A stretch of 64,000 nt of DNA from an uncultured Eubacteriaceae bacterium (GTDB lineage Bacteria > Bacillota > Clostridia > Lachnospirales > Lachnospiraceae). The notes beneath the pieces were generated by a model. It worked only from the letters and a program-made list of their open reading frames with translations. It was not told where the DNA came from and ran no database searches. The DNA is taken from assembly GCA_947066895.1 (NCBI GenBank), contig CAMTAA010000002.1:12786-76785 (forward strand). The letters are read 5' to 3'. Of the stretch, positions 39,741-40,409 are shown piece by piece. Every line of letters starts with the position of its first letter. Position 1 is the stretch's first letter. The translations under genes were made by a program, and so were the position numbers.

Positions 39741-40012
39741 GGGCGGGGGGACGCTAGAGTGGGGAAAAGATTCCTTGCCACTGTTCCGCTCTCCAAAAAG
39801 TAAGAAAGTCTAATGCTTTTGAATGTAGATACATCCAGCCGGACGGATCGGGGTGCAATTCGCCCGTACAGCGGGCTAAACACACCCCTTTTTTTGCCAT
39901 TCGGGAATGGCAAAAAATCCTAGTGGATCGACAAAAGCATAAGACTTTCTAACTTTTCTCCGAAGTCACAGTGGCAAGGAATCTTTTCCCCACTCTGGCT
40001 GTTTTTTCCTGC
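39741..40012 (+). repeat. Family A repeat, copy A6 (subfamily beta)
   Basis: gggcggggggacgctagagtggggaaaagattccttgccactg ... cagtggcaaggaatcttttccccactctggctg. Internal stem-loop + T7 + gccattcgggaatggc. Starts ~39 nt after the thiC stop. Confidence 0.85.
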
Positions 40013-40026
40013 CGATAAGTTTTTAT

Positions 40027-40160
40027 TTGATTCCTGTATCCATAGAGGTTCGAAAAAGGAAAACATAGAAATTGATTTATGTATCCATAGAGGATCGAGA
40101 AAAGAAAACATAAAAGTTGATTCCTGTATTCATAGAGGATCGAGAAAGGAAACGTAAATT
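40027..40160. repeat. Minisatellite, ~45-nt unit x 3 (ttgattcctgtatccatagaggatcgagaaaggaaaacataaaag) between A6 and inverted A7
   Basis: Units start at 40027, 40072 and 40117. The last unit ends gaaacgtaaattgtgagg. This shares the core GAAAC[AG]TAAATTG with the array at 51485-51790. Confidence 0.85.
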
Positions 40161-40171
40161 GTGAGGCAATA

Positions 40172-40409
40172 CAGCCAGAGTGCTTTAGGGAGACGCTGTG
40201 ACTTCGGAGGAAAGCTAGAAGTTCTTAGACTTCTGTCGATTCTGTAGGATTTTCGGGCACTTGTGCCCGAAAAAGGCACGTGTTTAGCCTCCTGCAGAGG
40301 CGAATTGCGTGCCGGTCCGTTCGGTGGGATGCACGGAAATTCAGAAGTCTTAGAACTTCTGCTTTCTGGAGAGCGGAACACGTCTCCCTAAAACACTCTG
40401 GCGTCCCCT
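40172..40409 (-). repeat. Family A repeat, copy A7 (reverse orientation, subfamily alpha, apical hairpin gggcacttgtgccc)
   Basis: cagccagagtgctttagggagacgctgtgacttcgg ... gggcacttgtgcccgaaaaaggcacgtgtttagcctcctgcagaggcgaattgcgtgccggtccg ... ctctggcgtcccc. Confidence 0.85.

Follow-up and report, generated by a model that had tools for sequence, protein, structure and literature searches.

In the window, that is, the whole 64-kb stretch of DNA analysed here, the intergenic region between thiC and a gene encoding an HD-domain protein is occupied by two inverted copies of a structured repeat (the A repeat) with a tandem array lying between them (Table 1). The original prediction had described this arrangement, and both of its components were confirmed. 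Profile boundaries, BLAST, and inverted-repeat arms delimited the inverted copies A6 and A7 with a gap of 173 nt, in place of the 160 nt first given; TRF scored the array at 2.8 copies (86% match), and a repeat search found three in-register copies of the 45-nt unit. The two copies had been called convergent. On the RNA-sense strand, which is the minus strand for A6 and the plus strand for A7, they are instead divergent, with their 5′ ends facing the array. Read on the plus strand, A6 is followed by GTTTTTTCC.

The same architecture recurs at a second locus of the window, as had already been noted, where copies A8 and A9 span positions 51083-52016 around a 39-nt array of 7.4 units. Together with the solo copies A1 to A5, the window contains nine A copies, which make up approximately 3.5% of its length. 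Gene callers place spurious open reading frames across the elements and arrays.

Table 1. Coordinates of A copies, tandem arrays, and flanking genes in the window
Feature	Position	Strand	Description
A1	3842..4093	-	Solo class-1 copy; begins 35 nt past a gene end
A2	20296..20545	-	Solo class-1 copy; G-rich 35-nt x5 array (20115-20292) on its 3′ side
A3	24540..24779	+	Solo copy with hybrid leader and tail; the sole window copy called TwoAYGGAY by Rfam
A4	30450..30698	-	Solo class-1 copy
A5	35090..35341	-	Solo class-1 copy; 66-nt x2.6 array (35360-35527) on its 5′ side
thiC	38404..39702	+	Open reading frame, 432 aa; PF01964 ThiC_Rad_SAM; stop codon 47 nt before A6
3′ tail of A6	39703..39748	-	C/T-rich; on the plus strand, the G-rich linker after the thiC stop
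A6	39749..40000	-	Class-1 copy, 252 nt; nhmmer 264 bits; antisense to thiC
L1 side of spacer	40001..40026	none	GTTTTTTCCTGCCGATAAG..., reverse complement of the class-1 leader CTTATCGGCAGGAAAAAAC
45-nt x3 tandem array	40027..40161	+	Unit TTGATTCaTGTATCCATAGAGG..GAAAcgTAAA, the conserved core of the minimal spacer
L2 leader	40147..40172	+	GGAAACGTAAATTGTGAGGCAATAC; promoter-like, TGn plus -10-like hexamer, ending 3-5 nt before the fold
A7	40173..40406	+	Class-2 copy, 234 nt; nhmmer 223 bits
3′ tail of A7	40403..40420	+	Class-2 tail with small GUCC..GGA hairpin; lacks the T run usual in class 2
HD-domain gene	40529..41152	+	207 aa; PF13328 HD_4; downstream of the composite
13-nt x4 array	51045..51097	+	Within the C-rich tail of A8
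A8	51083..51330	-	Left-hand member of the second composite; its tail is C-rich and its leader L2-like
39-nt x7.4 array	51489..51770	+	Unit GAAACATAAATTGCAGAATCATAC followed by AACCACCAAGGAG; combines the L2 leader with the opening ~13 nt of the fold
A9	51782..52016	+	Class-2 copy of the second composite

The A repeat carries an RNA-type fold

The A repeat is approximately 240 nt long and folds as a rod. The rod comprises two long helices, one of them the closing helix of about 30 bp, and a junction bearing two large and two small hairpins. The minimum free energy was −142 kcal/mol for A6 (z = −15.3) and −128.8 kcal/mol for A7 (z = −10.8). When 38 diverse copies were aligned, 32 of the 59 consensus pairs had changed on both sides in a compensatory manner. 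The closing helix (P1, about 30 bp) was 95% Watson-Crick over 124 copies, and its sequence is far more variable among copies than that of the core. Two single-nucleotide differences in strain L008 (40196 C>T and 40393 A>G) each mend a C·A mismatch in the closing helix of A7.

To identify the strand on which the structure is constrained, we compared the two orientations. Non-Watson-Crick pairs on one strand comprised 450 G-U against 64 A-C (125 copies), and the alifold energy was −115.7 on the RNA-sense strand versus −95.3 on the other. The G-U excess, combined with the better alifold energy on one strand, indicates that the constraint is of the RNA type and identifies the sense strand.

The junction is five-way and contains invariant single-stranded blocks. 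Two invariant GGAU motifs form the 3′ halves of the small YCC-N4-GGAU junction hairpins, and the terminal loops (UCUCGA/CUUGU and CUGCA) contain no GGA. Given the covariation and the conserved junction, the fold carries RNA-type constraints well beyond those that a terminator needs.

Copies form head-to-head, heterotypic pairs throughout the genome

A pattern scan with one genome per species returned at least 120 blocks, and among the matches listed almost all came from MGBC128194. This mouse-gut metagenome-assembled genome ("uncultured Lachnospiraceae MGBC128194") belongs to the species of the window, to which it is colinear over 21 kb at 98.4-98.9% identity. An nhmmer profile search found 209 A copies in 831 kb of this species; the genome thus holds at least 200 copies.

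Neighboring copies less than 1.5 kb apart showed a strict orientation rule, with 58 pairs in the order minus-plus, none in the order plus-minus, 3 minus-minus, and 3 plus-plus over the 831 kb (58:0 for minus-plus versus plus-minus, two-sided binomial p = 7e-18). There are therefore at least 58 minus-plus doublets, in which the 5′ ends face each other. The predicted recurrence of element, array, and inverted element accordingly extends genome-wide, with an array in 26 of these 58 pairs, and this recurrence argues that the arrangement is not coincidental. A second species contains a larger variant of the A repeat, likewise in minus-plus pairs.

Leader and tail consistently distinguish two classes of copy. 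In class 1 the leader reads ..CTTAYCGGCAGGAAAAGAC, and the 3′ tail is rich in C and T but poor in G (over 40 nt in 65 copies, C makes up 45% and G 4%, and TCCCC and CCTCC are enriched). In class 2 the leader reads GAAACGTAAATTGTGGaACAATAC, and the tail, UCUUUGGGA, leads into a T run. Pairs mostly join an L1/class-1 copy to an L2/class-2 copy and are thus heterotypic; 32 class-2 copies were paired and 6 single, and the corresponding numbers for class 1 were 41 and 29. The leader of class-2 copies was L2 in 28 cases and L1 in one. Because leader type stays with the class of the adjoining copy in this way, frequent flipping is disfavored, and an invertible-promoter reading was rejected.

We also rejected an origin of the pairs by local inverted duplication, as partners were no more similar to each other than non-partners (0.83 versus 0.82, p = 0.29). 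Co-phylogeny of partners ordered by class was not detected either (r = −0.17), in a comparison of 11 pairs that has low power.

The two classes differ in genomic position and candidate signals

All A copies are intergenic and lie at gene ends. Among class-1 copies, 50 of 75 lie a median of 45 nt past the stop codon of a gene reading into their 3′ end; the other 25 precede a gene read in the same direction, a placement for which a role as terminator is inapplicable. Downstream of 26 of 28 class-2 copies, a gene begins that shares their direction. The sense strand is the C-rich strand in 63 of 77 class-1 copies and the G-rich strand in 23 of 27 class-2 copies.

In the 8 nt past the hairpin, class 1 read antisense averages 5.35 T, and 51 of 65 copies have five or more; read in sense, the average is 3.3. 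In sequence, then, class 1 shows the stable hairpin and T run downstream of a gene that define an intrinsic terminator. For class 2 read in sense the average is 5.4 T, after a 5-bp GUCC..GGAU hairpin. Its leader contains an extended -10-like box, TGnGACAAT, which is kept in 30 class-2 copies and occurs as a perfect TGGTATAAT in L062. The signals of the A7 copy in the window are weaker than the family consensus, and its leader carries G, not A, at the key -11 position. A standard -35/-10 promoter scan and a terminator scan returned nothing above chance in either composite.

The strand-specific pairing bias likewise differs between the classes. With the two invariant G-U pairs left out, class 1 had 103 G-U against 54 A-C pairs, and class 2 had 61 against 7 (Fisher p = 1.4e-4). 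A G-U excess of 2:1 in class 1 versus 9:1 in class 2 fits selection of class 1 mainly as a hairpin read from the opposite strand. Since the twofold excess lies on the sense strand, class 1 may also be made as a sense RNA.

Tandem arrays are amplified from the spacer and vary among strains

In eight pairs the spacer is minimal, 78-84 nt long and free of arrays. It is conserved and asymmetric, L1 lying at one end and L2 at the opposite end. Aligned to these minimal spacers, the 45-nt unit of the thiC–HD array scored 32, whereas shuffled units reached 12.4 (z = 11.5). The unit repeated in the second composite, 39 nt long, matched the L2 leader (z = 4.2). The minisatellite at thiC–HD is no separate element but the spacer core, amplified in tandem. 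RNA structure was not predicted in the spacer or in the array units (z about 0).

Across the genome, tandem arrays occur in 26 of the 58 doublet spacers, with periods of 13-114 nt and a register that differs by locus. About 10 of 29 spacer arrays were recognizably leader-derived, and about two thirds could not be traced to the leader. Among arrays within 120 nt outside an element, 36 of 42 lie on its 5′ side. Array density was 1.06 per kb near elements versus 0.48 per kb in other intergenic DNA; intergenic DNA of this genome is rich in arrays everywhere, so the enrichment near elements is only about twofold.

Array length differed between strains, as had been anticipated. Most strains have 3 units in the thiC–HD array, but an exact 45-nt deletion leaves L009 with 2. 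Unit counts for the 39-nt array were 7.4, 7.6, 11.6, or about 13, and for the 13-nt array beside A8 they were 4.0, 2.6, or 2.2. The 35-nt array beside A2 and the 66-nt array beside A5 differ among strains as well, the latter by approximately 134 extra nt in L008. Several contigs end within the spacer, and arrays and repeats of this kind break short-read assemblies.

Because the units are drawn from the doublet's own spacer and vary in number among strains, the arrays appear to be by-products of the doublet and not insertion targets. A preference of the element for insertion into arrays, one of the readings first offered, is not supported, given the eight array-free spacers and the origin of the 45-nt unit in the spacer core. 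The companion proposal, that the element generates the array, survives in modified form, as in-place amplification of the element's own spacer or leader in a register that differs by locus.

The element is lineage-specific and kept in the strains examined

In a related species (87% amino acid identity in the HD protein and 92% in ThiC), the thiC–HD spacer is 127 nt long and element-free. The A element was likewise absent from all 80 loci of HD relatives searched (0/80). Mapping of insertion junctions against the empty thiC–HD site of L136 gave no result, the intergenic DNA being too diverged.

Within the species, every A copy examined was kept in all strains. Presence/absence polymorphism was found neither in about ten strains at A4-A9 nor against MGBC128194 at A2-A5. 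In 25 complete doublets there was no sign of target-site duplication, the longest shared flank repeat averaging 5.96 nt against 6.07 nt for mismatched controls, a comparison that duplications of 2-4 nt would escape. No transposase open reading frame lay in, between, or beside copies in the DNA examined, about a third of the genome; long spacers contain ordinary genes (an HTH regulator, an esterase) or large arrays. The element had no match in phages, plasmids, or viral contigs, and an origin from a phage or plasmid was rejected on this ground.

Relationship to TwoAYGGAY RNAs and other repeat families

A known RNA family gave partial matches to the A repeat. Rfam TwoAYGGAY (RF01731; gathering score 43) recognized A3 with 68.2 bits and two MGBC128194 copies with 74.2 and 70.8 bits. 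In scans with speed filters, A6 and A7 did not match it even at E ≤ 10, and about 40 further copies were not reported. A permissive Rfam scan of positions 39700-40450 returned only noise (miRNA and lncRNA models), so that A6 and A7 are not directly assignable to any Rfam family.

The TwoAYGGAY RNA motif was described by Weinberg et al. 2010 (PMC2864571), whose supplement gives a P1 of about 24 bp. Canonical Psychromonas representatives carry ...ACAUGGAUGU... (AUGGAU) in both terminal loops. In A copies, a long P1 likewise encloses two adjacent hairpins, both of which covary, and the defining AYGGAY is absent from the terminal loops. Since these loops lack the motif and Rfam misses most copies, we treat the A family as a distant structural relative of TwoAYGGAY and not as a member. 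The two share a very long closing helix, a two-hairpin junction, several copies per genome, and occurrence in gut Clostridiales. However, the A family is larger, with hundreds of copies, two classes, and head-to-head pairs, features that have no counterpart in the TwoAYGGAY literature compared.

In their arrangement, the doublets recall other bacterial repeats. BIMEs and REP doublets (REPINs) are inverted hairpin repeats of two types with asymmetric conserved linkers, found in enterobacteria and pseudomonads; they lie at gene ends, are sometimes tandemly amplified, and affect termination and mRNA stability. By description, A doublets resemble them in the inverted two-type hairpins, the conserved asymmetric linkers, and the gene-end placement. 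REPs, in contrast, measure 20-40 nt, against 240 nt for the A repeat, and have no complex covarying fold, and REPINs are tied to RAYT transposases, none of which was seen beside A copies in the DNA examined.

Hairpin MITEs that carry promoters or terminators, such as Correia/NEMIS, ERIC, and RUP, also resemble the A family by description, being lineage-specific, intergenic, present in hundreds of copies, cotranscribed with their neighbors, and active as terminators or promoters. Unlike them, the A family lacks terminal inverted repeats of the transposase-site kind and target duplications, and it has a strand-specific G-U excess. With the Csr/Rsm sponges (CsrB, RsmY/Z) it shares repeated GGA hairpins, and Rfam output places TwoAYGGAY in clan CL00106; its GGA motifs, however, lie in stems or junction strands instead of loops, and its copies are far more numerous. 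A hairpin and T run directly after a stop codon are shared with intrinsic terminators, from which the A repeat differs in being a 250-nt stem-loop with a conserved junction that the standard scan misses.

Alternative explanations

The doublet, or the single copy, might be a non-autonomous mobile element (foldback, MITE, or BIME) whose inverted arms measure 250 bp and whose enzyme is supplied from elsewhere; the arrays would then be the usual internal repeats of foldback elements. We regard this as a possible reading, albeit a rather unlikely one. It would account for the abundance of the repeat (at least 200 copies and about 3.5% of the window), for its absence from the orthologous site of the related species and from 80 related loci, and for the exclusively intergenic placement at gene ends, and the spacer of about 80 nt conserved across loci suggests ancestry of the doublet as a unit. 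It is opposed by the lack of target-site duplications in 25 doublets, of a transposase between or beside copies in the DNA examined, of insertion polymorphism in about ten strains at A4-A9, of phage, plasmid, or viral-contig matches, and of partner co-phylogeny (r = −0.17, n = 11), as well as by the strand-asymmetric G-U excess, which is unexpected for a DNA-level element. Mobility of this kind may belong to the past and not the present, and it is compatible with the explanation that we favor below. Far less can be said for a coincidence in a repeat-rich genome: minisatellites do occur at 0.48 per kb in all intergenic DNA, but the 58:0 orientation, heterotypic pairing, conserved spacer, spacer-derived units, and 5′ placement of 36 of 42 near-element arrays render chance adjacency extremely improbable, and the orientation bias together with the recurrent association of arrays and elements effectively rules it out.

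Two further readings assign the composite a single regulatory role, and we consider each of them improbable. One reading in the original prediction was that thiC and the HD gene are separated by a bidirectional terminator or insulator. That both halves are terminator-like stands: class 1 directly follows stop codons and, in the reading direction of the gene, its hairpin leads into a T run; class 2 is followed by a T run in its sense direction; and the stretch from the thiC stop to A6 contains no further hairpin. Bidirectionality fails, however, as the two halves point the same way, each resembling a terminator for transcription that runs with the flanking genes. Moreover, such a role needs no five-way junction, invariant blocks, or 32 covarying pairs, a simple terminator scan calls nothing at the locus, and the related species manages with a thiC–HD spacer of 127 nt. 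Alternatively, the RNAs could act as sponges titrating CsrA, with the arrays adding GGA sites. TwoAYGGAY has been proposed as a CsrA binder in Clostridia (PMC4333381). The A family has two invariant GGAU motifs, class-2 tails add a third (UUUGGGAU), the core unit of the spacer holds AGAGGAU, and a tblastn search identified a CsrA homologue in the same species (L084, 846-1049; 37% identity to Escherichia coli CsrA over 68 aa, E = 1.7e-8). The sponge reading is nevertheless weakened by the position of the GGA motifs, which are placed in stems or junction strands and not exposed in loops, the terminal loops being free of GGA; hundreds of copies would also far exceed known sponge systems.

A two-part doublet and its implications

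On balance, the thiC–HD locus is probably a lineage-specific doublet of structured repeats, in which a class-1 terminator and a class-2 small-RNA gene flank an array derived from their spacer. The promoter and terminator roles and the mechanism of amplification in this explanation are proposed from sequence features. Read from the upstream gene, class 1 (A6) would present a G-rich stretch, a giant hairpin, and a T run that would terminate the transcript of that gene; this combination makes it probable that class 1 acts as a terminator there. Class 2 (A7) shares the strand of the flanking genes; transcription would begin from its leader, at the base of the fold, and the RNA would end at a weak terminator of its own. 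The leader, together with the 5-bp hairpin and T run usual in class 2, suggests that class 2 is probably a separate small-RNA gene of about 260 nt. As for the array, pieces of the spacer, which lies between two inverted arms of 250 bp, have probably been duplicated by slippage or by unequal exchange.

These features bear on genome variation in gut Lachnospiraceae, as amplification from the spacer explains a class of hypervariable minisatellites in these bacteria, and the arrays could serve as strain markers. They also bear on TwoAYGGAY-type RNAs, whose function has been unassigned since 2010 and which here have a relative that is an amplified repeat of at least 200 copies.

More tentatively, and with low confidence, the doublet could be a two-part cassette, combining an antisense-read terminator with a promoter-driven small RNA, that constitutes an undescribed genome-saturating module and has reached hundreds of intergenic sites within a single Lachnospiraceae lineage, or else a repeat that spreads by virtue of its RNA fold. 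If the former holds, class-2 RNAs would be complementary to class-1 sequences in the 3′ ends of more than 100 mRNAs and could form a sense/antisense network. If the latter holds, the A family would be the first case among bacterial repeats of spread that relies on an RNA fold.

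Arrays and element variants among strains and species

Comparison with other strains pointed to differences in array length. In strain L008, the interval between element copy A5 and the TPP riboswitch of the thi operon is approximately 134 nt longer than in the window, a surplus consistent with two additional units of the 66-nt array. Overlapping BLAST segments likewise suggest that the mouse-gut genome MGBC128194 is longer at the 35-nt array beside A2, by approximately 70 nt (two units).

In a second Lachnospiraceae species (contigs L031, 516-1553, and L127, 74-1340), the second hairpin of the element carries an insertion of approximately 60 nt that contains AAGGAUG or GUGGAUC. 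Both pair partners share an identical leader, CCGGWGTCAAGAAAC, and in the spacer of L127 a unit with TTGACACTCAAGCATAGTCTTTTCGTGCC occurs three times. The element-free thiC-HD spacer of a related species (L136, 555-575) contains the 9-mer TCTATGGAT, an exact match to the doublet-spacer core, CCTCTATGGATAC. With the probability of a chance match roughly estimated at ~0.04, this 9-mer may be a relic, or else nothing.

Effects on gene calls and assemblies

Open reading frames (ORFs) called across elements and arrays in public assemblies (L001, L006 and L216) encode 63-167 aa and have no Pfam match. These ORFs are probably spurious, because they come and go with 1-2 nt indels between strains. Moreover, several public contigs (L010-L013) start inside the thiC-HD composite, 230-648 nt ahead of the HD gene, suggesting that short-read assemblies are broken there by the repeat or array.

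Genomic neighbourhood and element 3′ ends

Features adjoining the element copies, together with the called ORFs and a CsrA homologue, are listed below.

Coordinates of neighbouring features and of called ORFs
Feature	Sequence	Position	Strand	Remark
G-rich 35-nt x5.1 array	window	20115-20292		spans whole gap from gene end to A2 3′ tail
A-rich 24-nt x3.2 array	window	23995-24070		upstream of tRNA
tRNA, long variable arm	window	24134-24216
812-aa protein gene	window	30789-33227	+	Pfam: major-vault-protein shoulder domain (PF11978); Vault_3 faint
66-nt x2.6 array	window	35360-35527		between A5 5′ end and TPP riboswitch
TPP riboswitch, thi operon	window	35588-35698
CsrA homologue	L084 (window's own species)	846-1049	-	37% identity to E. 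coli CsrA
Called ORF	L001	11473-11976		over element/array
Called ORF	L006	10451-10642		over element/array
Called ORFs	L216	3906-4268; 4453-4824		over elements/arrays

GC skew is positive and very high throughout the window (1-64000; 0.15-0.50 in 2-kb windows), and the plus strand carries nearly all genes. The immediate neighbour of A4 is the 812-aa gene, which is bacterial MVP-like. A3, located 320 nt downstream of the tRNA, is the sole window copy recognised by Rfam and unites an L2-like leader and a C-rich tail in one copy.

Anti-Shine-Dalgarno words resembling CCUCC are abundant in the C-rich class-1 tails (CCTCC, 50 observed versus 25 expected). Downstream of A9, GGAGGAU (52044-52050) lies approximately 18 nt ahead of the called start of the next gene (52068). 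The predicted pairing partner of this motif is GUCCUCU (52013-52019), at the 3′ end of A9.
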